In this document: piece after piece, positions 3,255-29,630 of the stretch | Layout: each line of letters begins with the position of its first letter | Numbering within the stretch: position 1 is the stretch's first letter | Source: a virus | Length of the DNA stretch: 30,878 bases | Virus genome (UHGV): UHGV-1533542 | Strand: one strand, 5' to 3' | Translations under genes and position numbers: made by a program | Notes under the pieces: model-generated | Seen by the model: the letters and a program-made list of their open reading frames with translations, nothing else | Told to the model about the DNA's origin: nothing | The model's database searches: none

Positions 3255-3552
3255 GTTTAGACCTCGATATTTTGAAAATCTGAACAACGTTACCGCGTGT
3301 TTTAATAACCGCGGCAAGCATGACAGCGTTGATAATGACCTCAGATAAATCCACAGCCATTGGCGTGCGTAACCAGATTGCATAGACGACACGAACAGGA
3401 ATACTGGCCGCAGCAACAATAAGGAAATAAGCAAGCCACCCTCCCCATCTTCGATGTTGAGAGCCGTTACGCCGGAATGTGACAACGCGAATTGCTATGC
3501 CAGTACAAATAACTGCATTGGTGATAAGCAAAAAAAACTCATGCGTTACCAT
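3244..3552 (-). CDS. holin/antiholin-like small membrane protein
   Basis: 102-aa ORF with 2-3 hydrophobic helices, directly upstream of and overlapping the endolysin start; function assigned by position only. Confidence 0.5.
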
Positions 3553-3952
3553 CGTCTTTTCTCCCCGGAATTAAATCGCGTGGATTGTCTGAACGGTGGT
3601 AGAGCCATATACCAATACGCACAGCGACAATTGCTGACACGAATGCGCCAGCAGAGAAAACAATCCCTTTTTCAAAAGAGTCCTGCGTGATGGTAGGGAT
3701 CAGGCTGGCTATGCCGATAAGAATTGATGCTGCTGGTTTGTAGAAAAGAAGTCCACAGAGAAAGCTAAGCATCGATAAGAGTACGCGACGATGAATTGGG
3801 TACTCTACCGCAGAGGTAACAAAAATTACCGCACCAGCAAGAGCACCGAGCGCCACCTCTGGCGGAACGCCTACGATAACTGCAGCAAGAGAGCTCACAC
3901 TAAGCCATTGATTTAAAGAATCAGTAGTTAGATGGGCTGACATAATGAACAC
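3539..3952 (-). CDS. holin-like membrane protein (class I-like)
   Basis: 137 aa, about 3 TM helices and charged C-terminus ([19 protein letters not shown]); first gene of lysis cassette; start ambiguous (GTG 3952 or ATG 3943; a TAAGGAG lies about 20-29 nt upstream). Confidence 0.5.
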   Translation of the reverse strand: MFIMSAHLTTDSLNQWLSVSSLAAVIVGVPPEVALGALAGAVIFVTSAVEYPIHRRVLLSMLSFLCGLLFYKPAASILIGIASLIPTITQDSFEKGIVFSAGAFVSAIVAVRIGIWLYHRSDNPRDLIPGRKDDGNA

Positions 3953-4172: not shown

Positions 4173-6929
4173 TTAGCTACTTTCAAGCATTGCAAGACGT
4201 GATTCTATTTTTTCGATTCTTCTACGCAAATAAGCTGACTCAAGCCATAAACACTGGTCAGTACGGATACCCCACCTATTTCCAGCCTTGCAAACCAGAG
4301 TTCGCTCTTCTGTTTCGTATTCTTCTTCCATCTCAATTTCGACGCCATCCACAACTTTAGTGATCATCCTTACCGCCATCACTGGCGCGTATTTATCATC
4401 CCATTCATCGTAACAGAGAAGGCCAAATCTGGTTCCATCAATCCCATGCGCGAGGAAAGTGTCTCTCACTTGTTGTGCTATAACACCAAAATGCCAGCGG
4501 GCACCATCTCCCTTTTCCCTGACGGCATCAAGCCAGCGAAAAGCTACAATCCTGATATCTCCCCATGCATCCAGAATTGCATCACCTTCATAACCACGAG
4601 ACATATACAAGCTGAGCTCACTTGTACTAATCGGTTCACTTTTTTCTCTACCATCTGATGTGTTTATCGAACCGTTCGCAGAATAAACCTGTGCCCATCT
4701 AAATGATGGTGCACCAAGAGATTTGCTGTTATCAATAATTGGTGAAAAATTACCTTTAATGGCAATATTTCCAGAGTCGCCGAGTATATTAATAACTGCA
4801 GAGTCATCACCATGGTTTTTTACGCTTAAGTTTCTTGATGAAATATTTATATCTTTGTTATATCCACTAACATTAATCCATCTTTTACCATCAATGTGAT
4901 ACCCGTAAATATTTCCGTCTGATTGTTCGTCAGGTGACTCTCTAAGAACAATAGCATCTGCTCCAGACGACCATTGTATTTTTGTATCTGTAGGCCTCCA
5001 GTTCTTTATAATGAACGAACCATCAGTAAACTCCGTTTTTATTTGTCTATTGTCTACAAATGCGTCTCTTGGTTTAAACTCACTTGTGTTAACGCTGCTC
5101 TGAAGATCAGAAGCAAAAAATCTAAGATTTCCTGTATAACCCTGAGTCTCGGTCTTGTTATACGCAATCATAATTCCATTTTCAAACTCAGATGATGTTA
5201 TTTTAACATCACGGCAATCACCAAAAATGCAATTTCCTTTATCAAATGTTGTTTGAGCTTTGAATTTATCAAACCTTAAATTACGAACAGGGAAACCATC
5301 AACCTCTAATGCAAAGGATGCAGGAAGGCCAAAGTATTCTGATGGCTTACCTGATGTATGATCAAGAGTAGTGGCTACTGTATTCTCAAAAACAGTCCCG
5401 CTAAAATTATTACCAATTGACGGAAACCTGATTACACTTATTGTACCTTGTATTTCAGGAGAAATACCAGATAGTGTGATGTTAGCTCCATCAAATGATG
5501 CATCTGAATACGTATATACTGATTCACTGCCAGCAATTTTAAACTGTTTAACTGAAGTTATTCTCATCGACTTTTTATGTTTAAATGTCACTGAGCTTTC
5601 AGTATTACTTACAAGATCAATCTGAGGGCTATTCCTTATCGCGATCCCTGACTGGACATAAACGTTATTAAAGTGCGTTTTTTCAGGATTTCCCTTCATT
5701 GAAAGGCTCCCGTCATTTTCTGTCAGTAGTAGTCCTTTTACCCTCCAATAGCCGACAATCTGTACGTTATCAATAACTGAATCACAGCTATCGTATACAT
5801 GCAACCCTATATCCCAGTTATCACCCAATGAATAAGAATCAGGGTTATTGTATCCTTCAATACCATTTTTACTTACCATTATTCTCAGATTGCGTAACTG
5901 TGATGCCCTGTTGATACTAACAGCTACGCTCATGGCTTTTGGTGTAGCAGGAGTAACACCTACAGAATCTTCATTTGTAAACTCAGTGAACTTACAAGAT
6001 ATCCCTTCAACAATTTTAACTGGTCTTTCATTAGAGATGTTAAAAAAATATTTGTTTTTTTCTCCATCACCAGTAAATACAAGATGGGTTCCTTTACTCC
6101 AACTTTTTAATAATCTTTCAGGCGCTGGTCTATATGTATCCCAGTAATCAATTCCATCACCAATTAATGAAACTCCAGGAGGCACATCTATATTCTTAGA
6201 AATCATCCATTTACCTGCAGGTATTCTAACGACACTTGCACCAGAATTTATCGCATTAATTAACCATTCAGACGCATCAACTTCAAAATTTAATGCAGCA
6301 TATCTTTGCTCAAACGGAACAAAATCAAGAGCGTTAACGTTATCCCGCATCTTATCCTGGAACGTTCGGTATACTGCTCCAGAACCATACTGAATAAACC
6401 AACCAAAACCACCAATAACTCCGGCGATTGCAGCATCGACATAATTACGCATTGAGCGATTATTTACAGCGTCCTGCTCAAGTGATGGATCAGCAAGGTT
6501 AGATATTCTGTTTTGCTTTGCATCGTAATATTTTGCAAGCAAAGATGGTTTCATCAATGCACGTCTGAACCACCCAAAACATTGCTGGATCAGCATCGTC
6601 AGGTAGTCAAAAGCATCTTCATGCACTTCGGGGAAAAATTTACCCTGATTGCGAAGGTCTGTCTCCTGCACTACATCAAGCACACGATCTATCGTAATTC
6701 GCCATCCAGCAGCAAGCGGAGACGGAAGAACAACAGAACCGCCACTATAAGTGCCCGCCCCAGTTACCGTATAACCGGTATCCAGAACCAATTCTGTTAC
6801 GTTCCCGTTCAGGTCAGACACCTGAACAACCAGGTCGGATTTTTTGAAAATACGGAAGGTATACGGAAATGATGTCGTAGCGCCGTTACCAGTGTATTCG
6901 TTGTGGTCAACTTCGGTTGAGACCGTCAT
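4173..6929 (-). CDS. tailspike / tail fibre with depolymerase-type body and C-terminal intramolecular chaperone (peptidase S74-like) domain
   Basis: 918-aa ORF with SD GGAGA 6 nt before ATG; C-terminal ~160 aa match, from memory, the endosialidase auto-chaperone domain (S-D-G-R-E-K cleavage motif, DAWGD, HFGVIAQQVRD, C-terminal RRRIEKIESRLAMLE); central Asn/Ser/Gly-rich repeats consistent with a beta-helix. Confidence 0.88.
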   Translation of the reverse strand: MTVSTEVDHNEYTGNGATTSFPYTFRIFKKSDLVVQVSDLNGNVTELVLDTGYTVTGAGTYSGGSVVLPSPLAAGWRITIDRVLDVVQETDLRNQGKFFPEVHEDAFDYLTMLIQQCFGWFRRALMKPSLLAKYYDAKQNRISNLADPSLEQDAVNNRSMRNYVDAAIAGVIGGFGWFIQYGSGAVYRTFQDKMRDNVNALDFVPFEQRYAALNFEVDASEWLINAINSGASVVRIPAGKWMISKNIDVPPGVSLIGDGIDYWDTYRPAPERLLKSWSKGTHLVFTGDGEKNKYFFNISNERPVKIVEGISCKFTEFTNEDSVGVTPATPKAMSVAVSINRASQLRNLRIMVSKNGIEGYNNPDSYSLGDNWDIGLHVYDSCDSVIDNVQIVGYWRVKGLLLTENDGSLSMKGNPEKTHFNNVYVQSGIAIRNSPQIDLVSNTESSVTFKHKKSMRITSVKQFKIAGSESVYTYSDASFDGANITLSGISPEIQGTISVIRFPSIGNNFSGTVFENTVATTLDHTSGKPSEYFGLPASFALEVDGFPVRNLRFDKFKAQTTFDKGNCIFGDCRDVKITSSEFENGIMIAYNKTETQGYTGNLRFFASDLQSSVNTSEFKPRDAFVDNRQIKTEFTDGSFIIKNWRPTDTKIQWSSGADAIVLRESPDEQSDGNIYGYHIDGKRWINVSGYNKDINISSRNLSVKNHGDDSAVINILGDSGNIAIKGNFSPIIDNSKSLGAPSFRWAQVYSANGSINTSDGREKSEPISTSELSLYMSRGYEGDAILDAWGDIRIVAFRWLDAVREKGDGARWHFGVIAQQVRDTFLAHGIDGTRFGLLCYDEWDDKYAPVMAVRMITKVVDGVEIEMEEEYETEERTLVCKAGNRWGIRTDQCLWLESAYLRRRIEKIESRLAMLESS

Positions 6930-7033: not shown

Positions 7034-7048
7034 TTACCTTTCAGGTGA
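7034..7048. promoter_or_regulatory. ATTACC-N5-GGTAAT-type dyad, copy a (TTACC-TTTCA-GGTGA; one mismatch)
   Basis: Inverted repeat in the divergent intergenic region between tailspike start (6929) and the 85-aa gene; a partial copy (TTACCTGAAA) at about 6984. Confidence 0.5.
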
Positions 7049-7124: not shown

Positions 7125-7382
7125 ATGCAGCAGTATCACTATCCACTGGAAGACGGATTTACCGAAAGGATTCACACGCCGGGAGGCGTCAGGTCACTGG
7201 TGGAGGGATCGCACTTGATGAAATTACTCCGGGATCTCGATAAGGATGGATTTAATGTCGATGGCCCACTTGCCGAACTGACTGCACTGATTAACTACGT
7301 CACCAGCTCACAGATGTCTATGCAGGATCTGCAAACACATCTCGACTATTGTGCCGAACAATTACGAAAACAAACCCGGTAA
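7125..7382 (+). CDS. 85-aa protein preceded by a LexA box; paralogous to C-terminal domain of the Bro-N protein (antirepressor candidate)
   Basis: ATG with SD GGAGAAG; ORF opens at TTG 7107 but ATG 7125 preferred; by-eye alignment with residues ~148-228 of the 8528-9214 protein (HLMKLLRDLDKDGFNVDGPLAELT...DLQTHLDY vs LLMNLLNQLQEDGHDVSGAAAELT...DIQTHAEY). Confidence 0.65.
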   Translation: MQQYHYPLEDGFTERIHTPGGVRSLVEGSHLMKLLRDLDKDGFNVDGPLAELTALINYVTSSQMSMQDLQTHLDYCAEQLRKQTR

Positions 7383-7389
7383 ATTTAAA

Positions 7390-7405
7390 GGCCGCAAGAG
7401 CGGCC
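7390..7405. terminator. bidirectional hairpin terminator between convergent genes
   Basis: GGCCGC-AAGA-GCGGCC stem-loop with A/T-rich flanks, between the stop at 7382 (+) and the stop at 7405 (-). Confidence 0.5.
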
Positions 7406-8133
7406 TATCGTTTCGCTTTGTGCTCATCCCAGCACGTTTTGCACCATGCCATTAAGCCGTCCGCATTTTGATTATTAGGGTAAAAGCTGGTTCGTTTTCT
7501 GCGGACATTACAAATTGGGCACCACTTCATATGGCGTGTATTCTTTGGGCCATCGAGACACCTTGCACACCACTTAGTCAATCCATCTGGATTTTTTGAC
7601 GATTTCCTGAATTTTTCATATGGAAGGTTTATTCTGCATCGCAAGCACTGCTTGCTACCACTTGAAACTCTGTTAGCTGATTCTTCTTTTGGCGGCGATG
7701 CAGAAGGTATTCTTGCTGGCTCTGATACTGCCTGAGGTGCTTTTTTAGATGACTGAGACGATATGTCATCACCAGGGAATCTTCCATGATATGCCGGACG
7801 CGTTGACACTCCAGGTGGAAGCTCAGCTGTAAACGGCTTTGGCTGAATCAGTTGCCTCTCTTTTGCTAACTCCTGCTGTTTATAATATGTCTGGATTACC
7901 GCACTATCATAAGCAGGAGGTGCGGAAATATTAGGCGCATTACCTCCAGTTTTTTGAAACTGAGTAGAGGTGTGTTCTATCACCTGTGTACGATTAATCG
8001 TTATCTCCCCATCTTCGGTCTTTATCGTTTTGTTATGATTAACGACCGTACGATCAGAGATCTTAGTCTTGTTCTGGTTGATAACGTAAATAATCACCGC
8101 AACCACACCAACAACTATCCAGAAAACTTCCAT
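7405..8133 (-). CDS. membrane-anchored protein with C-terminal tandem zinc ribbons, function unknown
   Basis: SD GAGGA 6 nt before ATG; N-terminal TM helix (VFWIVVGVVAVIIYVI); Pro/Ser-rich linker; C-terminal Cys cluster CLRC...WCARC...WCPIC...WCKTC (two CxxC-N~20-CxxC units). Confidence 0.7.
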   Translation of the reverse strand: MEVFWIVVGVVAVIIYVINQNKTKISDRTVVNHNKTIKTEDGEITINRTQVIEHTSTQFQKTGGNAPNISAPPAYDSAVIQTYYKQQELAKERQLIQPKPFTAELPPGVSTRPAYHGRFPGDDISSQSSKKAPQAVSEPARIPSASPPKEESANRVSSGSKQCLRCRINLPYEKFRKSSKNPDGLTKWCARCLDGPKNTRHMKWCPICNVRRKRTSFYPNNQNADGLMAWCKTCWDEHKAKR

Positions 8134-8153: not shown

Positions 8154-8168
8154 TTACCTTAAAGGTAA
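8154..8168. promoter_or_regulatory. ATTACC-N5-GGTAAT dyad, copy b (perfect; TTACC-TTAAA-GGTAA)
   Basis: Perfect inverted repeat about 20 bp upstream of the RBS of minus-strand gene 7405-8133, in the divergent region shared with the Bro-N gene; weaker related site CTTGCTTTCAGGTGA at 8172-8186. Confidence 0.55.
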
Positions 8169-8246
8169 TATCTTGCTTTCAGGTGATCAAGCGTTAAACG
8201 CAATCAACCAAATACGGTTGATTTTAATATTTCTTCGCGTTTATCA

Positions 8247-8261
8247 TTACCTTTGCGGTAA
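8247..8261. promoter_or_regulatory. ATTACC-N5-GGTAAT dyad, copy b3 (TTACC-TTTGC-GGTAA)
   Basis: Perfect TTACC-N5-GGTAA inside the long 5' region of the Bro-N gene. Confidence 0.5.
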
Positions 8262-8527
8262 ATTTACATCGCACTCCTCTTGTGCCATAGTAATCGGGCA
8301 CTGGATTTTGCCAGTGCCGGGATTGGCGTCCCGGGTTACTACAGAGGCACATATGCCGCATAAGCGGTTTTTTTATGTGTAAAGCGCACCTATTCTATGG
8401 TGGGCTGTGTGGGGGCACCGAAAGGTGCGCCGGGTCCTTTGTAGCCGGTTACGCCAACCCTGCACAGTTCACCACCAACCGATTGGCGTCGGTAGTGGTG
8501 ATTAACCTAACTACAAAGGTGATCACT

Positions 8528-9214
8528 ATGACTGCTAACGTAACCCCATCTGTTTTTCATTTTGAATCAGAGGCAACCATTCGAGCCATTGTTATTGATG
8601 GAAATCCTTGGTTTGTTGCCAAAGACGTTATTAAAGCTCTTCAACTGACAAACCCCACTATGTCAATAAAATCTCTTGATGATGATGAAAGGGCTAAATT
8701 TAACTTAGGCCGTCAAGGCGAAACCAATATTATCAACGAGTCAGGCCTCTACACACTGATCCTCCGCTGCCGCGATGCGGTGACACCAGGCACTATCCCC
8801 TACCGCTTTCGTAAATGGGTTACAGGTGAGGTTCTTCCTCAGATCCGCCGCACCGGAAGTTACATTAAAAACTCGCTCCCGCAGGAAGAACGCATAAAGA
8901 TGGTTGCCGACCAGGTAGCCAACGCCACGGCGTCAGCAGTAATGCAGGCGATGAAGATAGAGAACAAAACCTACAGTGCCCCGCTGAAGCCCGGCTACCG
9001 CAGCCTGATTCACTCGCCGTCTGGTGTTCTCGGCCTGACGGAGAACTCACTGCTGATGAATCTGCTGAACCAGTTACAGGAAGACGGGCACGACGTATCG
9101 GGCGCGGCGGCAGAGCTGACCACCATGTTCTGCTACATCGTCGGTGTGAGCAAATGCCTGCGTGATATCCAGACGCACGCGGAGTACATCAACGACAAAG
9201 CAGGATTCTTCTGA
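8528..9214 (+). CDS. Bro-N domain protein (phage antirepressor-like) with C-terminal domain paralogous to the 85-aa protein
   Basis: ATG 8528 with SD AAGGTG chosen over the RBS-less ATG 8375; N-terminal Bro-N signature (FHFESEATIRAIVIDGNPWFVAKDVIKALQL); hairpin with weak T-tract after stop. Confidence 0.85.
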   Translation: MTANVTPSVFHFESEATIRAIVIDGNPWFVAKDVIKALQLTNPTMSIKSLDDDERAKFNLGRQGETNIINESGLYTLILRCRDAVTPGTIPYRFRKWVTGEVLPQIRRTGSYIKNSLPQEERIKMVADQVANATASAVMQAMKIENKTYSAPLKPGYRSLIHSPSGVLGLTENSLLMNLLNQLQEDGHDVSGAAAELTTMFCYIVGVSKCLRDIQTHAEYINDKAGFF

Positions 9215-9223
9215 CAGAACGGC

Positions 9224-9247
9224 GGCACATGGATGTGCCTTTAAATA
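9224..9247 (+). terminator. possible intrinsic terminator after the Bro-N gene
   Basis: GGCACA-TGGA-TGTGCC hairpin followed by TTTAAATAATT; T-tract is weak. Confidence 0.35.
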
Positions 9248-9287
9248 ATTCTGTACAGATTGCAGACTGTTGGTGAATAGCGTACTA

Positions 9288-9302
9288 TTACCTCAAGGGT
9301 AA
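9288..9302. promoter_or_regulatory. ATTACC-N5-GGTAAT dyad, copy d (TTACC-TCAAG-GGTAA)
   Basis: Perfect TTACC-N5-GGTAA about 60 bp upstream of the small ORF / toxin-like gene pair. Confidence 0.5.
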
Positions 9303-9362
9303 ACGGATTGGTTTCATTTTTATTAATCCGTGTAATGAACTTATGAGATATGAGGTAATGTC

Positions 9363-9542
9363 ATGCGAAACGAAAAATTGCAGATGCGTAGAGCGCAAGC
9401 TGCCGCAAGACGTTCTTTCAATGGAAGCGTAGAGTGCGTAAAAGTTACTATGACAAAAGATCACGCAAGTCGCGTATCCCGCGCTTTCTTTGATTCTCGT
9501 AACAATAAGGAAAATTATGAGTTCGTCTGCGTCGCAGAATGA
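9363..9542 (+). CDS. small ORF (59 aa) upstream of and overlapping the toxin-like gene; antitoxin candidate
   Basis: ATG 9363 preceded by SD GAGG (gaggtaatgtcATG); basic 59-aa product; overlaps next gene start by 26 nt in another frame; below the ORF-track size cutoff; coding status unproven. Confidence 0.3.
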   Translation: MRNEKLQMRRAQAAARRSFNGSVECVKVTMTKDHASRVSRAFFDSRNNKENYEFVCVAE

Positions 9543-10062
9543 TAAAAATCAAATTGTCAGATATAAGGGTCGAGTATTGCATACGCAAAATTTCTCGGCC
9601 CTTTGTGCATCTGATCTTGAGCTGAAGAAAGTATCTGATGCCTTTACCCAGTATTGGAAAACGGGATACCATCCATCTCTTGGTAAAGATGCTGCATTTG
9701 CTCGTCCGACAGAAATGCTTAAACTAAATGTCAGGCATACTCATGTCGATAACCAAGACTATATTCCAGAAGATAGTGATAAAAAACACACTGGTAAAAA
9801 ATCATCTTGGGATGCATGGAAAAATATAGCGTCTGTGCAAGTAAAATGCATACCAACAAGTGATTGCTTTTTAGTTTATTCGGTAAATCACAATCGTGAT
9901 GCGCTGGTTATGTTTTTTGTTGACGCAGATGCCCACAACATAACTGAGCAAGAAGAGTTTAAAGAGGCAGCAATCACTATCAGTTATCAATTCTTTGAGA
10001 AAACAAAAACAGAACCAATGCCTTTAGAAGAAGATCTTTTTTCTGATAAATGGAAGGAATAA
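9517..10062 (+). CDS. 181-aa protein with YafO-like toxin features (candidate mRNA-interferase-type toxin)
   Basis: ATG 9517 with SD AAGGA (ORF opens at TTG 9490); by-eye similarity to my recollection of E. coli YafO (F.QY.K.G..P..GKDA, L.V.HTHV, F/HLVY...AL....D..H); strong terminator follows. Confidence 0.6.
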   Translation: MSSSASQNDKNQIVRYKGRVLHTQNFSALCASDLELKKVSDAFTQYWKTGYHPSLGKDAAFARPTEMLKLNVRHTHVDNQDYIPEDSDKKHTGKKSSWDAWKNIASVQVKCIPTSDCFLVYSVNHNRDALVMFFVDADAHNITEQEEFKEAAITISYQFFEKTKTEPMPLEEDLFSDKWKE

Positions 10063-10086
10063 GCCCGCGTTGCGGGCTTTTTTGTG
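10063..10086 (+). terminator. intrinsic terminator of the plus-strand accessory unit
   Basis: Directly after stop 10062: stem GCCCGC/GCGGGC, 3-nt loop, then TTTTTTGTG. Confidence 0.8.
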
Positions 10087-10120
10087 TCTGCGGATTCCCG
10101 CCCGGGCGGCGGTGGCATTC

Positions 10121-10148
10121 GTTAAAAACAAGGCCGCGAAAGCGGCCT
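10121..10148 (-). terminator. intrinsic terminator ending the long minus-strand virion operon
   Basis: Stem AGGCCGC/GCGGCCT with GAAA loop; on the minus strand it is followed by TTTTT; lies just downstream of the 46-aa ORF stop and abuts palindrome 10149-10160. Confidence 0.6.
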
Positions 10149-10160
10149 GTGACATGTCAC
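10149..10160. repeat. perfect 12-bp palindrome GTGACATGTCAC, copy i
   Basis: Exact palindrome between the stop of the 46-aa ORF and the minus-strand terminator; identical copies at 27433-27444 and 29698-29709. Confidence 0.8.
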
Positions 10161-10167
10161 GCTCACG

Positions 10168-10308
10168 TTATGACAAGCCTATGTACCCTGCTACACCAGA
10201 TAATATCAAAATAACTGCAACAGCAAATTCGCCATCGTCAATGATACATTTACGGTTCATAACGCCAAGTGCAACAAGCGCAAACACAACAAGAATAAAA
10301 GCAATCAT
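10168..10308 (-). CDS. 46-aa two-helix membrane micropeptide, last gene of the virion operon
   Basis: ATG 9 nt after the stop of the 824-aa gene with SD AAGGA; product MIAFILVVFALVALGVMNRKCIIDDGEFAVAVILILSGVAGYIGLS has two hydrophobic segments; not in the ORF track (below size cutoff). Confidence 0.45.
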   Translation of the reverse strand: MIAFILVVFALVALGVMNRKCIIDDGEFAVAVILILSGVAGYIGLS

Positions 10309-10317
10309 TTCTCATCC

Positions 10318-12792
10318 TTATTGCGGAGTGACATCCTGTGGTCGCCACCAGTATGTCTGGTTAAACTCTTTCTTCGAACGTTGCTCCATTTTACGCAAAT
10401 AGCCTGGTGAAAAATACTCCTGCATCTGGTTAAAGATCATGTGATCGAGAGCCGCCTTTAAGTACCAGAGATTCGCACCTGGCATCAAACCTTTCCCCAG
10501 CTTCACCAGATCACCACCAGTCTGCTCACTCTTCCCTTCCACAGCATTTAACGGTATGCCCTGAGCAATCTTCACTACGTCATCAACCAGACCAGCTACC
10601 GGGCCAAGCATCGACGCCAGCGCGCCGCTTCCGTACCTAGTGTGATCTGACAATAAAAAGTCACCGTAAAGGCCAAGACCACCACCTTTCAGTAGAGCAC
10701 CAAGCCAAAATTTAGCAGCATCTTCTCCTGTCATCTCGCGAGGATTACGACCAGACGCAAGGTCGTTAAGTTGCTGCGACAAAGCGCCAAGAATGGTCGT
10801 ACTGGCAATAAACGTCGCAATATATGCCGCACGCCCACCAGCAGACGGCATACCCATAGCGCGTGACCAGTGACGCATAACTACCGAGATAGGGAACGAT
10901 TTAAACAGGAAAACACTTCTCGTTAATTCACCTTTCCATGTTCCACGCTGAATACCAGAACCGGTTATCAGTTGCTCACGTGCTCCCGGTGTAATAACAG
11001 CCATATCAACTTCTTCAGTTACGGCACCGAGAAGTTTACGCATTGCCTCAAATTTCACGCGTTCAGGCTCACCAAGATGTTTAACTGCTGAATCAGGGAT
11101 ACGCATAATGCTTTCCGGTGTCAGCATCGTATTATTGCCGTTCCCCCAGTCCTCCTGTTGCGCCAGCTTCCATACGCTCCAGTCTGTTTCAGTAATCCCT
11201 TTGCTTTTCAGGATACGAAAATCAGAGTCATCGAGGCTACGAAGGTCTGGTGTCCGTGACACTACCTCTCCCAGGCTTCCCATCATTGTTACGCCATAGG
11301 CGCGCTTGTGCGCATCTGACCATGCTGTAAGCCCACTGGCACGCATTACCGCCGTTGCCGCCCAACGAGACACAGACGGCCCCATATTATCCATTGCCCA
11401 GCGGTTAACACTGCCAAGTAGAGATTCCATCGCCAGACCAGCGCGGCGCGCCCGCGCAAGCTCAGTACGGTTCGTTGGGTCCATAGCTTCAAGCTGGTTG
11501 CGGAATAACTGGTTCATTGGAAGGTTGGTCACCTTCGCAGACAGATACATGGTTCCAAGATCAGAGAACGATGACAGCAACGCGGATCCTAGTCGGCTGG
11601 CAACCAGCCAGTTGCGGATATTGTCAGACCAGCGCGCGATGTGCGGATTCGCTACAGGCTGTGTCTTTCCGGAAATAAAGTTGTACAGATTCTCTGTGTT
11701 GTTCGCCAGCCGCTCGACTTTACCGGTTTTACTCGGGTTAGCTGTTGCCGTTTCTGCCTTCACCTGATCAAGAAGAGAGCGGAAAACATGATCGGGGTTT
11801 GGGCCATATGTTTCCACCAGTGCAATATCTTTACTGATACCTTCCAGGTGACCGACCATGATTTCCCATAGAGAGCGATCGCCATAAAGTTGCTGATATT
11901 GCAGATAGGAATCTGCATCTTTGAAATGTATCTGTCGTGATGCATTACCCCGGTTAGCACGTGCGCCGGAAATTCGCATTCCGGTATCAGTAAGCTTATT
12001 CAGCCCACCAGTAGCGATCGTGTTATAAGCCTCTCCAAGAAATGCAGACAACTCGGCATCGTTCATCAGTTGTCCATCGACTCGGGTATAATATTTGCGA
12101 TCCAGCTTACCTATAACATCGCTAACCCACTTATCCTTTGATACCGCCCCAACCTTTTCCATAGAATGATGTTGAGGGATCCCCCAGTTTTCGAGATAGC
12201 CAATGTCCCCACCAGCATCATTAAACCGGCGGCGCAGTAGCTCTGTCACTTCTCTCCACGCCTTAGCACCTTTTCTTGCTTTAGCATTGCCAGTATTTTG
12301 CCCTCGCATTTCATATACCAGGTCACGCACGCCAGCTTCATCTTCAAACAGGCCAAAAAAGCGAGGATCAACTGCTTCAAATGCCTCCTGCAATTGACTC
12401 AATGCATAATCACGAGTGGCTTTTGTTCTGGATTCAACAGAGAGGAAATTCGATTTACCGTCTGCATTAAAAGCAATAGTACGGTTAAGAGCGCCAAGTT
12501 TCCCATCAGCCCCTTGATAGCTATTGATAAATTTATCCAATCTCTGACGTGCGGCTATAGTGAGAGCCACACGACGTTTCTTTAATGCCGCTTCTCGCTG
12601 TAATTCTTCAGATGCCAATTGTGCTGCACGATACAACCGTTCTGATTCGGAAAGTTGTCGCCACGACATCGGATCATCACGAGCAATGGAGCGCATATTT
12701 CGATAAATGCGGTCTTCAATGTTCTGTATTTCTCGCGCCGTTAACGTGCGCTGCGCCGCCTGCTGGACCGCTTGTATACATTCCTGTCTCAT
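10318..12792 (-). CDS. large internal virion / ejection protein (824 aa)
   Basis: Long ORF in the virion operon; position equivalent to internal core/ejection proteins of podoviruses; function by position only. Confidence 0.75.
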   Translation of the reverse strand: MRQECIQAVQQAAQRTLTAREIQNIEDRIYRNMRSIARDDPMSWRQLSESERLYRAAQLASEELQREAALKKRRVALTIAARQRLDKFINSYQGADGKLGALNRTIAFNADGKSNFLSVESRTKATRDYALSQLQEAFEAVDPRFFGLFEDEAGVRDLVYEMRGQNTGNAKARKGAKAWREVTELLRRRFNDAGGDIGYLENWGIPQHHSMEKVGAVSKDKWVSDVIGKLDRKYYTRVDGQLMNDAELSAFLGEAYNTIATGGLNKLTDTGMRISGARANRGNASRQIHFKDADSYLQYQQLYGDRSLWEIMVGHLEGISKDIALVETYGPNPDHVFRSLLDQVKAETATANPSKTGKVERLANNTENLYNFISGKTQPVANPHIARWSDNIRNWLVASRLGSALLSSFSDLGTMYLSAKVTNLPMNQLFRNQLEAMDPTNRTELARARRAGLAMESLLGSVNRWAMDNMGPSVSRWAATAVMRASGLTAWSDAHKRAYGVTMMGSLGEVVSRTPDLRSLDDSDFRILKSKGITETDWSVWKLAQQEDWGNGNNTMLTPESIMRIPDSAVKHLGEPERVKFEAMRKLLGAVTEEVDMAVITPGAREQLITGSGIQRGTWKGELTRSVFLFKSFPISVVMRHWSRAMGMPSAGGRAAYIATFIASTTILGALSQQLNDLASGRNPREMTGEDAAKFWLGALLKGGGLGLYGDFLLSDHTRYGSGALASMLGPVAGLVDDVVKIAQGIPLNAVEGKSEQTGGDLVKLGKGLMPGANLWYLKAALDHMIFNQMQEYFSPGYLRKMEQRSKKEFNQTYWWRPQDVTPQ

Positions 12793-14600: not shown

Positions 14601-17110
14601 TGCGGAATATCTCCGGAGAATCTCTGACGCTTCTGTGTCAGATCAAGAACAACAGGAGAACCATCATCTTTCAGCAGATAACCAGTACCAAGTTTCACCA
14701 GGTACTGACTATCGCCGTAACTTTGCAAACCATACTGACCAGGCGGTGTTTTTATCCCGGTGCCGACAACTTGTTCATTCCAAGCCTGATTAACCTGCTT
14801 ATCGAATTGCTCTGCAGACATTCCCCACGGCAAAAGGACATTCCCCATTCCGTTATAGTCATGCACGCCACCTGTAGCTACGTTAACAGCCTGTTTCCAG
14901 ATATCAGTGTCAATTTCGCCTGATATCACGCCTTTTTTCGCCATCACACCAGCGTAATAGTCCTTTGCGATCTCGTATGCCATTGATGCCCCCTGAGCAT
15001 CACCAGCAAATGCATCCTTCACCATGTCAGAAAACTCAAGGCGAAGATCAGCATCTTTAGGCATCGGAATACCTTTCGCATCATCAGTACCTTTACGAGC
15101 CGCCGCGCCAGCAAGAATTGTCTGCGCAGCGGTTTCAGGAGACACGGAAACATCCGGATTAAACCAGTTTTTTTCTGCCAAAATACCACCAGGCTTGTCC
15201 ATCAGTATCCCGGCAACGGCAGCAGATGGAGCGTTGGCACTGATCTGCTGTAGTGCTGACATATACACCTGCCCACCACCAGTGCTCTGCCTGATGGTAT
15301 CGAGATATGCTGCCTGTTGAGAAACTGGAGCATCACGAAAGAAAACACCGATCTGATTGGCCTCGTCTTTGGAAAAGAACGTCAGTGGAGTGCCATATGA
15401 CTTAGCAAGGTCACTGACCTGAGCGGCACGCAAGGCAACGCTATGTCCAAAGTTATCCTTATTGCTCATGTCGATAGGCTTTGCCTGTCCGGAGGCAAGA
15501 GAGAACTGCACAGGATCCGACTGCCGCTGCTTTATCACCTGATTTGCAGCCGAAACAACGTTGTCATAAAGAGCTGCGCGAGACGCATAACCCTCCCCTG
15601 TCTCACCAGTATCCGGGCGTAATTGCTCAACATATGCTGTAATGCTGCTTGTCGGCATGTTGCGGAAAGAGCCTATATACTGTCCGGCGATCTGCGTATT
15701 CTTAAACTCGGTATATCGCAGGTTTCCTTCTCTGACTCCATAAGCTGCAATAAAATCATCCTCACCAGGTGGGTTAGGAAATTCAACGCCACGCATATAC
15801 GCAGCTGTCGCATCGCGAACCTGGCTGTCAATCATCGTTTTATATTCATCCTGCTGCTGCCGACGCAGTTGATCCGCCTGTCGCATAAAACTTGCCTGCG
15901 CCTCAGAAGATGCCGCATCGAATGCTGCATTACCGGTATAGCGTTTGGTGTTGGTTGGAATTGTTGATAAACCAAGTGCTGCACTGACACCAGCAGTTAA
16001 CTGCTGATCACTGTATGGCTGGCTACCGTTCTCATGATGGATAATGGCTGCACAAAGCGCCTTCAGGGTATCAGGATTTGATGCATCGAGAGGCTCATCA
16101 GCAGAAACGCCAAGTTGTTCGCACACTGCTTTGATATACGACATAGTGTCATTTTTATCAGTGGGCGGTGCCCAGCGATTAATTATCTCGCTGACGGTAT
16201 CAATACCCTGCCTATGATACGACATCAGGTTCCGCCCTAATGCACGAATCCCGTGTTCAGGTGTTTCGAATTTAGCAAATCGACCATCATCACCGGTCTG
16301 GCCTACCCACGGATTAGTTTTGCTGTATTCGAGATTTCCTGGGTTATTGTTGCGTATGCCACGGGCACGATCGGAAGAGTCACTATCGGCTACAGCACGG
16401 CGAGCTCCAGCAGCAGTATCACTTAACTCGCCATTACTTTGGATGAATGCGGTCGCATTGTTTGCCGACCACTGGGACAATGCGGCATCAGCAACCTTCT
16501 CTTTAAACTCGATTTTCTTGGCCTGGATTTGCTCGTCGCTCCAGCCATGCGCAATGCCGTAATCCTCAATTTGCTGGAAAGTTTGCTTATTAGCCAATAC
16601 GTATGCGGCGTTGTCGCCATACAATGCTGCGGCATTTTTACCATTGTTCAGCAGCGTAGCCTGAAACTGACCTTCTTCGTAGGCATTTATTTGCCCTATC
16701 TCGTGCCGCCCGGCCTGCGTAGTGAACTGAATACGCTGCTGCTGCGCCTGCTGCATGAAAGCATTACGAGCCTGTTCATCCGGCAGCGACATAGCCAGTT
16801 GTTCGACCTGAGCATCAAACTGCTGCGTATACTCCTGACCTTTTCCAATAGCATTTTTCCCTTTCAGGTTAAGCAAACCTGTTTCAGGGTTATTCAGCAG
16901 ATCGCTGCTTATCTGGCTTAAGCTAAGAGAAGCATCCTGAGCCATAGCAACATTCGCGCGCTGTTTTGCCTGCGCAATAATACCTGCATATTGCTCTGCA
17001 ACATCGCCAAGTACATCACCGACATTTGGTGTCTGAAACGATGAGAATCCCTGCGTCGAAATCCCTCTGCTCTGAACCTGACGGCCCGATGTTGTTGGTA
17101 CAACTGGCAT
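14597..17110 (-). CDS. internal virion / ejection protein (837 aa)
   Basis: Long ORF in the virion operon; contains a conserved-looking NNPGNL segment whose function I cannot assign. Confidence 0.75.
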   Translation of the reverse strand: MPVVPTTSGRQVQSRGISTQGFSSFQTPNVGDVLGDVAEQYAGIIAQAKQRANVAMAQDASLSLSQISSDLLNNPETGLLNLKGKNAIGKGQEYTQQFDAQVEQLAMSLPDEQARNAFMQQAQQQRIQFTTQAGRHEIGQINAYEEGQFQATLLNNGKNAAALYGDNAAYVLANKQTFQQIEDYGIAHGWSDEQIQAKKIEFKEKVADAALSQWSANNATAFIQSNGELSDTAAGARRAVADSDSSDRARGIRNNNPGNLEYSKTNPWVGQTGDDGRFAKFETPEHGIRALGRNLMSYHRQGIDTVSEIINRWAPPTDKNDTMSYIKAVCEQLGVSADEPLDASNPDTLKALCAAIIHHENGSQPYSDQQLTAGVSAALGLSTIPTNTKRYTGNAAFDAASSEAQASFMRQADQLRRQQQDEYKTMIDSQVRDATAAYMRGVEFPNPPGEDDFIAAYGVREGNLRYTEFKNTQIAGQYIGSFRNMPTSSITAYVEQLRPDTGETGEGYASRAALYDNVVSAANQVIKQRQSDPVQFSLASGQAKPIDMSNKDNFGHSVALRAAQVSDLAKSYGTPLTFFSKDEANQIGVFFRDAPVSQQAAYLDTIRQSTGGGQVYMSALQQISANAPSAAVAGILMDKPGGILAEKNWFNPDVSVSPETAAQTILAGAAARKGTDDAKGIPMPKDADLRLEFSDMVKDAFAGDAQGASMAYEIAKDYYAGVMAKKGVISGEIDTDIWKQAVNVATGGVHDYNGMGNVLLPWGMSAEQFDKQVNQAWNEQVVGTGIKTPPGQYGLQSYGDSQYLVKLGTGYLLKDDGSPVVLDLTQKRQRFSGDIPQ

Positions 17111-26393: not shown

Positions 26394-26408
26394 TTACCTT
26401 TCAGGTAA
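26394..26408. promoter_or_regulatory. ATTACC-N5-GGTAAT dyad, copy c (TTACC-TTTCA-GGTAA)
   Basis: Perfect TTACC-N5-GGTAA 17 bp downstream of a TTGACA hexamer (26372-26377), between the divergent head operon and the plus-strand tRNA unit. Confidence 0.5.
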
Positions 26409-26730: not shown

Positions 26731-26807
26731 GTGGCATTAGCTCAGTTGGACAGAGCAACCGCCTTCTAAGCGGTTGGTCGCAGGTTCGAATCCTGCATGC
26801 CACGCCA
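26731..26807 (+). tRNA. tRNA-Arg (anticodon UCU), phage-encoded
   Basis: Cloverleaf read by eye: acceptor GTGGCAT/ATGCCAC, D-arm GCTC..GAGC, anticodon stem ACCGC/GCGGT with loop CTTCTAA (anticodon TCT), T-arm GCAGG-TTCGAAT-CCTGC, encoded CCA; body close to but distinct from E. coli argU as I recall it. Confidence 0.88.
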
Positions 26808-27005: not shown

Positions 27006-27428
27006 ATGAAGACAATTGATATGTTGGCTAAGTATCTAAATGAATGGCCATTAAAATATTCTCGTATCGTTCAGGCTGAAGACTGCGTTTTTTATGGCGT
27101 TTTTGCTGGTAATGAAATGCATTACGAAGTAATTCAGAGTGAGGGACTGACCGGGTTAACTCTTAGCGAAGACCATGGTACTAGCGTTACGTTCCATGAC
27201 TGGATAACAGCACAACGTTCTGAAATGGAAAAAGGCGATGTGTTTGATATTTCTCGCTCTGTATACGCCAAAGAAAAAAGTGATGATGATTACATGCGCG
27301 AAAACTTATACAACATGAAGTTACAATGCCTGGCTGAAGTGCTTAGTAAAAGATCTTTACTTGATGTGGTTGGTGCTGAGCAGGACGCCAAGGCAATCAA
27401 CGCCGCATTCGATAAAATAACCTTCTAA
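27006..27428 (+). CDS. 140-aa acidic cytoplasmic protein, unknown function (moron between terminase and portal)
   Basis: ATG with SD AAGGTG; no TM or signal peptide; about 24 Asp/Glu vs 15 Lys/Arg; opposite strand to flanking virion genes; followed by palindrome and terminator. Confidence 0.7.
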   Translation: MKTIDMLAKYLNEWPLKYSRIVQAEDCVFYGVFAGNEMHYEVIQSEGLTGLTLSEDHGTSVTFHDWITAQRSEMEKGDVFDISRSVYAKEKSDDDYMRENLYNMKLQCLAEVLSKRSLLDVVGAEQDAKAINAAFDKITF

Positions 27429-27518: not shown

Positions 27519-28994
27519 TTAAGCATAGGGATCGTAATCTGTGATGGCCTTGCCTTGCTGGTTCTGCTGACCGGGAATTCGCAGACGCTTCGACACAGGG
27601 AACGCAAACGTCAGCAGTAGCGCATCGCCTTTACCAGGAGAACGCCCAAGCCGCTCCTTGATATCTTCCTTCTGTTCGATAATGATTTTACCGTCCACGC
27701 GAACTTTGTACTCTGCCGCCGACAGGTCGTCCGCTGTTTCCTGGTCATCCAGCATGCCGCCCAGCCTCAGCCATGTCTTGCATGAATTGAACATCTCCCC
27801 ACGCTTGTTGAGCATCTGCGGGTCAGTAGACGCGCCACCGAACGGAACAAGTTGCCATGTACGACCCCATCCGTCACCGATTGACTTCAAACCGGTTCCG
27901 TAACCGAAGTCGATGAACACCGCGTCAGCCTGATACTGGTCTTCAAAGTCAGCGATACGCTTTGCCATAATCAGATCGTCAGTGGTCTTGTTGCCAGTCC
28001 ACAGCACCTTACTGTGCAGCCCCTGCCGCAGGTATATCACAGCGTCATCAACGCCTGAGTATGCCGGGTCAACGCCGATTATCACCGGAGCATGTGCAAC
28101 CTGCGCAGCGGTGACCACCCGTTTCATTGCCTCGTCAGTAAGTCCGGTAGGGATAAACTGCAATTCAGATGCATCCGGGAATATGCCGCGCACACGGATT
28201 TTAACGAAGTCGCTGTCTTCCCCGTAGTCATCAACCCATTTCTGCAACTGCTGTTTGTTGGTGCCTTCCACCGTCCGGCTGTCAATCTGCGCAGTTTTCC
28301 AGCGGTGTTTATATTTGCGGAAACATTCGCGGAAACGTCCGGTATTACGCGTCGGGTTTCCGAACGCCACCCAGATAATCTCAGTGTCTTCGTCCGTTAG
28401 CGCACCCTCGGCAACTTCCCACACCAGATCCGCAATGTTCGACGCTTCATCGAATACCACGATGATGCGTTTGCGCTCGTTGTGTAGTCCGGCGAATGCC
28501 TCAGTGTTGTGCTCAGACCAGGGTATTGCGTCAGCTCGCCACCGCTTGTCGTGTCCAGGATCATTGCTGTACATCGCGGTAGCGGTACAGGTAAACCAGT
28601 CTTTCGTGATAGCAAGGTTCGACCACTTGATAATTTCCGGCCAGGTCTTCGTTCGTAGCTGGTTGTCGGTGTTGGCGGTCACCACAACCTTACAATCCTC
28701 GCAAGTGGACATGCCCCAGTTGATCAGCATTGAGATGAATGCGGATTTACCAATACCGTGACCCGAAGCGCGTGCCAGCATAAGCGGCTGATAGCGCGTC
28801 TCTGGATTCTGCAGGTGATCACGTATCTCTCGGAACGCATCAGCCTGCCACTGACGTGGACCGGTGGCATGTGCCAGTTCAGTCCCATCTTCCCCCCACG
28901 GGAACGCATAGAGGGCATAGCCAAGCGGATCGTGAGTGAACCCTGCAATATCCTCGATTAACTGCTCTTCAGGAGATAACGCTGTATCTGTCAC
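27519..28994 (-). CDS. terminase large subunit
   Basis: 491 aa; Walker A-like SGHGIGKS in N-terminal ATPase part, acidic nuclease-type C-terminal part; GTG start overlaps terS stop; directly upstream of portal module. Confidence 0.92.
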   Translation of the reverse strand: MTDTALSPEEQLIEDIAGFTHDPLGYALYAFPWGEDGTELAHATGPRQWQADAFREIRDHLQNPETRYQPLMLARASGHGIGKSAFISMLINWGMSTCEDCKVVVTANTDNQLRTKTWPEIIKWSNLAITKDWFTCTATAMYSNDPGHDKRWRADAIPWSEHNTEAFAGLHNERKRIIVVFDEASNIADLVWEVAEGALTDEDTEIIWVAFGNPTRNTGRFRECFRKYKHRWKTAQIDSRTVEGTNKQQLQKWVDDYGEDSDFVKIRVRGIFPDASELQFIPTGLTDEAMKRVVTAAQVAHAPVIIGVDPAYSGVDDAVIYLRQGLHSKVLWTGNKTTDDLIMAKRIADFEDQYQADAVFIDFGYGTGLKSIGDGWGRTWQLVPFGGASTDPQMLNKRGEMFNSCKTWLRLGGMLDDQETADDLSAAEYKVRVDGKIIIEQKEDIKERLGRSPGKGDALLLTFAFPVSKRLRIPGQQNQQGKAITDYDPYA

Positions 28995-29587
28995 TGATTA
29001 CCATCCTGACGTTCTTTGAGTCGCTTCCTGGCTGCTGCTATGCGATCAGCAATTGTCACATTCACATTAACATCCAGACGTTCTTTGAATGCGTTGACAT
29101 CAACATGCTTACCAATCAGCTCAAGGTTCTTCACCTTGTCAGGCCATTTAATTTTTTTGAGGATTGTCTCTATTGAATCCTCGTTCATGTTCATGATGGT
29201 CGATGACAGATCAAAGCCACTAAGCGTAGTGCGCCAGATTTTCGGCCACTCACGGATTGGTTTAAGGCTCCCATCGTCGTTGAGGATGTCGATCACGTCC
29301 ATCTGGTCGATCTCCACCAGGCGCATGAGAACGTAATCAGCACTGACACGCATTCGTTTGTTGCGCTCCTCCATCAACTCGGCAATCCGTTTCTGAATGC
29401 GTTCATCGCGCATCATGACACTGGCTTTAACTGCCGCTGTATTTGGGGAGAATCCTGCGTTAATCGCAGCCTGAGTCTGGTTTTCAGGCGTTTTGATGTA
29501 TGACTGGCAATAAGCCTCCTGCATTGCTGTGAGCGGCTTAAATTGCGTTGATTTGCGTTTATAGGTTTTAGGTTCAGCAGGCATCAT
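28991..29587 (-). CDS. terminase small subunit
   Basis: Start set at ATG 29587 (MMPAEPK...) because the TTG-opened extension to 29665 contains an intrinsic terminator; HTH-type segment TAMQEAYCQSYIKTPENQTQAAINAGFS typical of small terminases (memory). Confidence 0.8.
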   Translation of the reverse strand: MMPAEPKTYKRKSTQFKPLTAMQEAYCQSYIKTPENQTQAAINAGFSPNTAAVKASVMMRDERIQKRIAELMEERNKRMRVSADYVLMRLVEIDQMDVIDILNDDGSLKPIREWPKIWRTTLSGFDLSSTIMNMNEDSIETILKKIKWPDKVKNLELIGKHVDVNAFKERLDVNVNVTIADRIAAARKRLKERQDGNQ

Positions 29588-29630
29588 AACCACCGTGGTA
29601 ATTGTTACCGTTGTGGTAATAGTACCATGC

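Follow-up and report, generated by a model that had tools for sequence, protein, structure and literature searches.

A YafO-family toxin gene with a small, co-inherited partner behind a putative immunity operator in an epsilon15-like prophage

The virus genome UHGV-1533542, a stretch of 30,878 nucleotides (nt) referred to in its entirety as the window, carries a compact two-gene cassette on its plus strand that encodes a YafO-family toxin homologue and a small partner protein. The upstream gene (9363-9542) encodes the 59-residue partner, a putative antitoxin, and has a Shine–Dalgarno (SD) sequence, GAGG, at 9352-9355, seven bases upstream. The downstream gene (9517-10062) encodes a 181-residue long-form toxin, with its own SD sequence, AAGGA, at 9507-9511, five bases upstream. 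The two open reading frames (ORFs) overlap by 26 nt, and both lie where an initial annotation of this DNA had placed them. A start of MSSSA is common to all toxin homologues, and the toxin therefore begins at the ATG at 9517 and not at the TTG at 9490. An intrinsic terminator at 10061-10086 on the plus strand, also recorded as inverted repeat I9, closes the unit. Its stem, AAGCCCGC-GTT-GCGGGCTT at 10061-10079, has eight pairs, six of them G-C, and is followed by the T-rich tail TTTTGTGT. From promoter to terminator the unit is bicistronic, and the helix-turn-helix (HTH) repressor-like gene of the phage is not part of the same operon. The layout is that of a type II toxin–antitoxin system, with two adjacent, co-oriented and co-inherited genes, the small one beside the toxin. 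A third component, the 46-residue membrane ORF at 10168-10308 on the minus strand, was considered and rejected, as its link to the cassette is inconsistent. An RNA antitoxin or repeat-based (type I/III) system was likewise rejected, as 9200-10200 holds no Rfam match and no tandem or otherwise meaningful repeats.

Transcription of the cassette is expected from a sigma-70-type promoter at 9260-9288 on the plus strand, with the −35 element TTGCAG at 9260-9265, a 17-nt spacer and the −10 element TACTAT at 9283-9288. This promoter was read from the sequence and falls below the threshold of a consensus scan. An exact palindrome, ATTACC-TCAAG-GGTAAA (9287-9303; core TTACCTCAAGGGTAA, 9288-9302), overlaps the last base of the −10 element and the expected transcription start. 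In the window, TTACC-N5-GGTAA occurs five times exactly and eight times with at most one mismatch; the chance expectation is 0.48, and none of 100 shuffles reached the count. This enrichment bears out the proposal of the initial annotation that the unit has its own operator at 9288-9302, just as the eight-pair stem with its T-tail bears out the strong terminator. Upstream of the small ORF, the operator shows strict conservation across loci of 57–80% toxin identity, and it stands at the −10 element of a conserved promoter in eight diverged loci. Moreover, the promoter geometry, TTGnnn-17(18)-TAnTAT/CAnAAT followed by ATTACC-N5-GGTAA, is kept in seven loci where the intergenic sequence has otherwise diverged.

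The 181-residue protein matches the Pfam profile YafO_toxin (PF13957) with 25.9 bits and an E-value of 1.1e-5, residues 46-148 aligning with profile positions 3-88 of 101. The same profile is matched by 39 of 60 aligned members of the toxin family, the best at 1e-39, and the precomputed Pfam labels of the homologues give PF13957 for some and no family for others. In a profile–profile alignment with hhalign, 23 sequences of the phage clade and 12 short YafO proteins, the latter led by YafO of Escherichia coli K-12, gave a probability of 99.7% (E 9.4e-26) over 130 columns, the whole of YafO. The short set was retrieved with the phage-clade profile itself, and K-12 YafO was added independently from NC_000913. 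As single sequences, the toxin and K-12 YafO aligned weakly (probability 6%), and the comparison is decisive only with the YafO alignment. hhalign pairs F43..Y46.K48.G50..P53..G56.D58A59, V72.H74.H76 and F118LVY121...H140 with K-12 YafO residues. The motifs named in the initial annotation are thus real, and the YafO likeness it proposed holds both in Pfam, above the gathering score, and in hhalign. All residues conserved across the family (F43, G56, D58, P64, H74, H76, S115, D116, L119, Y121 and H140) are present in the toxin, with G56 and H76 invariant among 68 aligned sequences and H140 found in 67 of them. These core residues are kept in long and short forms alike. Because the set of conserved residues is complete, the enzyme is probably active.

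An AlphaFold2 model of the toxin, built from the 68 sequences, has a predicted local distance difference test score (pLDDT) of 93 and a predicted template modeling score (pTM) of 0.87. In the model, helices and strands follow one another as in RelE-type toxins, a RelE/HigB-like fold of the BECR type. By profile and by model, the 181-residue protein is therefore best described as a YafO-family toxin homologue with a RelE fold. In K-12, YafO acts as an mRNA interferase of the RelE superfamily that depends on translation (PMC2814082), and PF_YafO appears in a survey as a BECR-fold family with ~1,000 members and antitoxin–toxin gene order (PMC11980606). A search of the Protein Data Bank (PDB) by sequence with the toxin profile returned nothing relevant, and so no YafO structure is available; a Foldseek search of the model against BFVD gave nothing significant. 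The RefSeq name of the toxin is already ‘type II toxin-antitoxin system YafO family toxin’, and its PHROGs match is phrog_1651, of unknown function. A word-indexed search turned up 27 relatives, and profile searching of 1.84 billion cluster representatives only 70 matches, which grade from proteins of 163–200 residues into YafO proteins of 130 residues. NCBIfam gave no meaningful match. A search for related loci in genome contigs returned no match with the clade alignment and close relatives only with K-12 YafO alone. Among the defense models of PADLOC-DB 2.0, none matched the toxin, the partner or K-12 YafO at E-values up to 1.

The toxin belongs to a definable long-form YafO subfamily, found mostly in prophage accessory regions. 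This subfamily comprises 48 of the 68 aligned sequences, all of at least 160 residues. To the core it adds an insertion with an almost invariant tryptophan, W98, and a C-terminal MPLxEDLFSDKW, both of which are missing in canonical YafO. The toxin is mildly acidic, with an isoelectric point (pI) of 6.0. By eye, and with no statistics attached, the conserved C-terminal extension (PMPLEEDLFSDKWKE, residues 164-181, window 10006-10059) is similar to the C-terminus of YafN (MTDDDFNDFKE). The same tail also resembles, again by eye and with no statistics, the acidic and aromatic tails of the small partners described below. Speculatively, the EEDLFSDKW tail, in its resemblance to DDDFNDFKE of YafN, might act in cis.

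The 59-residue ORF is a real gene under purifying selection, conserved and co-inherited with the toxin. In tblastn searches, a partner lies directly upstream of the toxin, overlapping or abutting its start, in 42 of 43 IMG/VR loci. The 43rd (L046, 44% toxin identity) has a diverged 55-residue equivalent ending in NNEFCCAE. Compared with four loci of 71–80% toxin identity, the partner has a ratio of nonsynonymous to synonymous change (pN/pS) of 0.28–0.32 over codons outside the overlap, and differences are concentrated at third codon positions. Homologues of 59 residues occur in Salmonella, Lelliottia and Hafnia, and the partner matches phrog_6685, of unknown function, over its full length. The best-conserved part is the C-terminal half, composed of a helix (residues 32-44) and the tail N-Y-E-F-V-C-V-A-E. 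Constraint from this tail is also visible in the toxin frame. The first seven toxin residues, MSSSASQ, are near-invariant though disordered in the model, and variability begins exactly where the partner ORF ends. Constraint on the overlap therefore appears to stem from the partner tail, Y-E-F-V-C-V-A-E, encoded in the other frame.

The partner is basic (pI 9.9), with predicted helices at residues 2-20 and 32-44, and its N-terminal helix is arginine-rich and conserved. Modeled alone with AlphaFold2, it shows two helices and no compact fold, at low confidence (pLDDT 70, pTM 0.35). Antitoxin segments that fold on binding usually show such a non-compact shape when alone. Charge complementarity between an acidic toxin and a basic partner recurs in most long-form pairs. 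Together, the conservation, co-inheritance, shape and charge of the 59-residue protein support a physical partner of the toxin, most simply an antitoxin, and we consider it a likely, putative antitoxin. No DNA-binding domain was detected in Pfam or PDB searches or in the AlphaFold2 model, and the partner has no sequence similarity to Pfam or PDB entries. An hhalign comparison of its alignment with YafN gave a probability of 0.35%, which does not place it among Phd/YefM-family antitoxins and agrees with the earlier view that the small ORF is unlike YafN or Phd. A profile built from the small partners of this and other toxins, run against 5.8 billion clusters, recovered only its seeds and sequences close to them, none of which is named or carries a known domain.

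Similar small genes accompany more distant toxins. Among the distant homologues looked up one by one, every long-form toxin gene has a small gene upstream, as do several short PF13957 members. These partners have 52–86 residues (once 186), carry no Pfam domain and are mostly basic. Common to them are a ‘(S/T)K(E/D)..(I/V)S’ helix and, after it, an acidic/aromatic C-terminus. On chromosomes, outside any phage context, short canonical YafO genes also have a partner of this type. L046, the most diverged of the phage loci, has a tandem of two paralogous partner genes ahead of the toxin, at 1630-1845 and 1889-2056 of that contig; the first encodes 71 residues ending in NHEFVL and has an extra N-terminal segment, KTIRMTDEHKQLLEKG, and the second encodes the 55-residue equivalent mentioned above. 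In public bacterial genomes the partner is easily overlooked. The RefSeq/PGAP annotation of NZ_CP122448 leaves the partner ORF unannotated (3455-3758, corresponding to window 9214-9517), such that the toxin seems an orphan, and other E. coli genome matches likewise list the toxin as a single annotated feature. The record of Escherichia phage TL-2011b does annotate the partner, as a hypothetical protein.

Further copies of the cassette operator stand at other transcription units of the window. One, at 8247-8261, overlaps the −10 element TATCAT (8242-8247) of the promoter of a c4-like RNA and an Ant (Bro-N) gene. Another, at 8154-8168, lies upstream of a 242-residue gene on the minus strand (7405-8133), and a copy with one mismatch (7034-7048) lies between the tailspike start (6929, minus strand) and an 85-residue ORF (7125-7382, plus strand). 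A copy at 26394-26408 is upstream of the portal-side virion genes and has its TL-2011b equivalent at 14819. Directly upstream of the small terminase is an adjacent pair, 29587-29601 (one mismatch) and 29605-29619 (exact), equivalent to 11590 and 11608 in TL-2011b. The complete TL-2011b genome has 14 sites, ten exact and four with one mismatch. Two copies stand on each side of the gene for gp10, a 194-residue HTH_3 protein, which is divergent from a 76-residue gene in the classical repressor/cro layout. An HTH gene in a prophage of E. coli strain 85.0412 is flanked by the same operators. At the leftward promoter, the operator again overlaps the −10 element (TTGACA-16-TAATCA-TTACC). The HTH repressor-like gene, whose product is WP_000836290.1, belongs to the early region, outside the window. 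The simplest reading of these placements is that the palindrome would be the operator of the immunity repressor, with which the phage would repress most of its transcription units directly. ATTACC-N5-GGTAA(T) stands at most transcription-unit starts, those of early genes included, and was also seen in L072 at 8296-11463; from this placement, late and accessory operons would seem to be controlled by the repressor directly. No description of such a dispersed-operator arrangement was found in the searchable literature.

The phage is an epsilon15/Uetakevirus-like prophage; its relative phiv142-3 is classified as Uetakevirus-type. Region 9230-10120 is 98.8% identical to TL-2011b (NC_019445) and 100% identical to the prophage adjoining guaA in E. 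coli strain 85.0412 (NZ_CP122448). Read along the minus strand, the window presents in order the early genes, small terminase (28991-29584), large terminase, tRNA-Arg(tct), portal and virion genes. The virion/injection operon ends with an 824-residue gene (10318-12792, minus strand). Past it, and ahead of the tailspike gene (4173-6929, minus strand) with the lysis genes beyond, sits the plus-strand block that contains the cassette. The immediate neighbors of the cassette are the Ant/Bro-N gene (8528-9214) on one side and the 824-residue gene on the other. The position between the virion operon and the tailspike unit given in the initial annotation is thus correct, with the qualification that other immI-like genes also lie between them.

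Several of these neighbors were seen in passing. Upstream of the Ant/Bro-N gene, on the plus strand, are a C4 antisense RNA (Rfam RF01695; 8393-8479; 79.5 bits, gathering score 45), isrK (RF01394; 8298-8374; 56.7 bits, gathering score 50) and a sub-threshold Rfam match to the c4 a1/b1 target (8285-8337). Together with the Bro-N/Ant coding sequence at 8528-9214, and behind an operator-overlapped promoter at 8218-8247, all three matches make up a c4-ant unit like immI of phages P1 and P7, here in an epsilon15-type podophage. Divergent from the c4/ant promoter and with its own operator copy (8154-8168) is the 242-residue gene at 7405-8133 on the minus strand, to which protein families assign no function beyond a weak, sub-threshold match to Stc1. 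The 85-residue ORF at 7125-7382 on the plus strand is similar by eye to the C-terminal part of the neighboring Ant (LLRDLDKDGFNVDGPLAELT and LLNQLQEDGHDVSGAAAELT, respectively) and may be a stand-alone Ant C-terminal domain; Pfam gave no significant match for it. Between the large terminase and portal genes, on the opposite strand to both, lies tRNA-Arg (anticodon tct; 26731-26807, plus strand), and a 140-residue ORF with no family match (27006-27428, plus strand) is likewise inserted there.

Among relatives the cassette is patchy. Of 50,697 phage records only TL-2011b contains it, and related phages match the flanks only; in phiv142-3 the site is taken by two small ORFs unrelated to the cassette. 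In IMG/VR, 229 contigs have the repressor and only 43 have the cassette, which is also present in 61 of 5,426 complete E. coli genomes (~1%). In the majority of diverged loci it lies between an Ant-like gene and the 824-residue virion gene, while more distant cassettes adjoin tailspike, Bro-N/ORF6N or P2-type genes. The cassette is accessory cargo in a variable, immI-like prophage region. A lambdoid setting was also found (L043, 57% toxin identity), where the cassette (5762-6546) follows Q, endolysin and Rz and precedes a glycosyltransferase gene of the serotype-conversion type. Since this locus has the same palindrome, the cassette moves between phage types with its promoter and operator.

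On balance we favor, with reservations, the reading that the cassette is an accessory, bicistronic, toxin–antitoxin-like operon of YafO type gated by the phage immunity operator. By analogy with K-12 YafO, the toxin, with its RelE/HigB-fold endoribonuclease core, would most likely cleave mRNA during translation, and toxicity to the host would be expected of such an activity. The partner, whose translation would be coupled to that of the toxin through the 26-nt overlap, most likely neutralizes it by direct binding. Whereas a classical type II system sets its own transcription, this pair probably does not. Instead, the operator at −10/+1 is predicted to keep the cassette promoter closed once lysogeny is established. 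As this operator is shared with the flanks of the repressor gene, the cassette probably stays silent in a lysogen. Transcription would begin where immunity is lacking or breaks down, during infection of a naive cell or on induction, and would end at the cassette's own terminator.

Several observations weigh against this interpretation. The Pfam score of the toxin is borderline, only 0.9 bit over the gathering cutoff of 25.0, and a Foldseek search of the toxin model against PDB gave no significant match (best E 0.18, HigB2). The long-form insertion and C-terminal extension are extra elements with no assigned role, and a mildly acidic long-form toxin is unusual compared with ribosome-dependent RelE-type RNases. 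We infer binding of the repressor to the palindrome from the placement of its copies only. The lambdoid L043 cassette keeps the palindrome with no other copy within 6 kb, and the operator may thus travel with the cassette and serve autoregulation. Finally, it is not obvious what selection would favor a toxin–antitoxin pair that the lysogen keeps off.

A rival reading is a module expressed from the prophage for addiction or for abortive infection as an anti-phage defense, with operator control only partial or conditional. The initial annotation had suggested such a module, in what it called a typical defense/addiction-moron position. The patchy, accessory distribution in a variable prophage region, the cassette's own promoter and terminator, and a toxin–antitoxin architecture with a RelE-fold toxin all agree with it, and there is precedent in paaR2-paaA2-parE2, a prophage pair that is wired into an immunity circuit and is addictive (PMC8630535). 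However, the operator over −10/+1, shared with the repressor gene and with lytic promoters, predicts that the cassette is off under stable repression. PADLOC defense models match neither protein, and literature on these proteins was not found. The data thus do not support a typical moron expressed from the prophage, and we judge this reading to be unlikely. The palindrome could instead be, or be in addition, an autoregulatory operator of the cassette, bound by the 59-residue protein or by the toxin–partner complex, with its identity to the immunity operator reflecting shared or borrowed specificity. Its persistence with the cassette in L043, and likewise in L032, with no second copy within 6 kb, is consistent with this, as is the conserved arginine-rich N-terminal helix of the partner. 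Either the L043 phage is of the same immunity type, or the operator is part of the cassette and serves autoregulation; the IMG/VR repressor scan returned only relatives of at least 98% identity. The L030 contig, by contrast, also carries paired operators elsewhere. No DNA-binding domain is detectable in the partner, and more distant cassettes have no consistent palindrome upstream. The 14 sites in TL-2011b, which include both sides of the repressor gene, are most simply explained by a dedicated repressor. We hold autoregulation to be improbable.

The pair might also not function as a toxin–antitoxin system at all. The 181-residue protein would then be a phage RNase of the lytic cycle that shuts off host mRNA or processes transcripts, and the small protein its cofactor, targeting subunit or chaperone. 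Predicted expression alongside early and lytic promoters would suit this role. So would the W98 insertion, MPLxEDLFSDKW tail and acidic charge that set the long form apart from chromosomal YafO, and a basic partner unlike the usual acidic antitoxins. Yet a small upstream gene with an overlap is the standard antitoxin-then-toxin order for YafO (PMC11980606), the same type of partner stands beside short canonical YafO genes in non-phage chromosomal contexts, and nothing in our data indicates a cofactor. We therefore regard this alternative as quite improbable. Returning to the immunity-gated operon, a bolder form of it can be stated, which we hold to be doubtful. The prophage repressor would silence the YafO-type RNase and an antidote with no DNA-binding domain, and only a lack or collapse of immunity would release them, in a wiring opposite to that of known prophage toxin–antitoxin modules. 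The cassette could then provide timed host shut-off, or a fail-safe that kills cells in which the repressor has been inactivated, for example by the antirepressor of a rival phage. On this view, most YafO-family toxins outside E. coli yafNO would have their general antitoxin in the family of small partners of 52–86 residues.

Public databases already annotate the toxin, whereas no description of the partner family, long-form subfamily or wiring was found; a literature search for these accessions, for PHROG 1651 or 6685 and for a Uetakevirus operator returned nothing. New here is an unnamed, conserved family of small proteins that accompanies many YafO-family toxins and is hidden in RefSeq bacterial genomes. 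New also is the wiring of the cassette to the immunity operator, with a polarity predicted to be opposite to that of paaR2-paaA2-parE2, the one characterized prophage example. If confirmed, this wiring would offer a simple and testable example of a toxin that acts when phage immunity is lost.

The closest known system is YafN–YafO of K-12, encoded in the dinB-yafN-yafO-yafP operon. Its toxin is homologous to the phage toxin and shares the conserved core residues, and the order of antitoxin then toxin is also the same. K-12 YafO has 132 residues, whereas the 181-residue phage toxin has an N-terminal extension, the W98 insertion and the MPLxEDLFSDKW tail. YafN is a Phd/YefM-type antitoxin, while the phage partner is a basic protein of 59 residues with neither a Phd/YefM domain nor detectable similarity to YafN. 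The last 29 residues of the partner are similar by eye to the C-terminus of YafN, a helix with an acidic/aromatic tail, a likeness with no statistical support. The control also differs, with yafNO in the LexA-controlled dinB operon and the phage pair under a phage operator. HigB2 of Vibrio cholerae (PDB 5mje, 8a0x) and other HigB/RelE proteins are more remote, with 8–10% identity and membership of another Pfam family. Moreover, higBA has the toxin first and HigA antitoxins carry an HTH, unlike the phage cassette.

The operator layout is reminiscent of P1. The P1 repressor has many dispersed operators, and at immI a promoter under repressor control drives the c4 RNA, the host-inhibitory icd and the antirepressor. 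A counterpart of P1/P7 immI (c4, icd and ant behind the C1-controlled Op51) is found in the window, where the C4-family RNA and Ant/Bro-N gene stand behind an operator directly upstream of the cassette. The YafO pair, by contrast, comes with a separate promoter and terminator and bears no relation to icd. The operators themselves also differ, as the C1 site of P1 is asymmetric and the operator of this phage is a symmetric 5-N5-5 palindrome.

In its regulation, the cassette is best compared with paaR2-paaA2-parE2 of the cryptic prophage CP-933P in E. coli O157:H7, where a CI-like phage repressor, and not the antitoxin, sets transcription (PMC8630535). Both systems combine a toxin of the RelE/ParE superfamily with a small antitoxin, putative in the phage cassette, that has no DNA-binding domain, and both reside in prophages. 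ParE2 is a gyrase poison of ParE type, in contrast to the YafO-type RNase homologue of the phage. In paaR2-paaA2-parE2, the repressor gene is the first of the operon, so that repressor and pair are expressed together while immunity holds, and the pair is addictive. In the phage, the repressor gene is more than 20 kb from the cassette, and the operator predicts the opposite polarity, with the pair off in the immune state.

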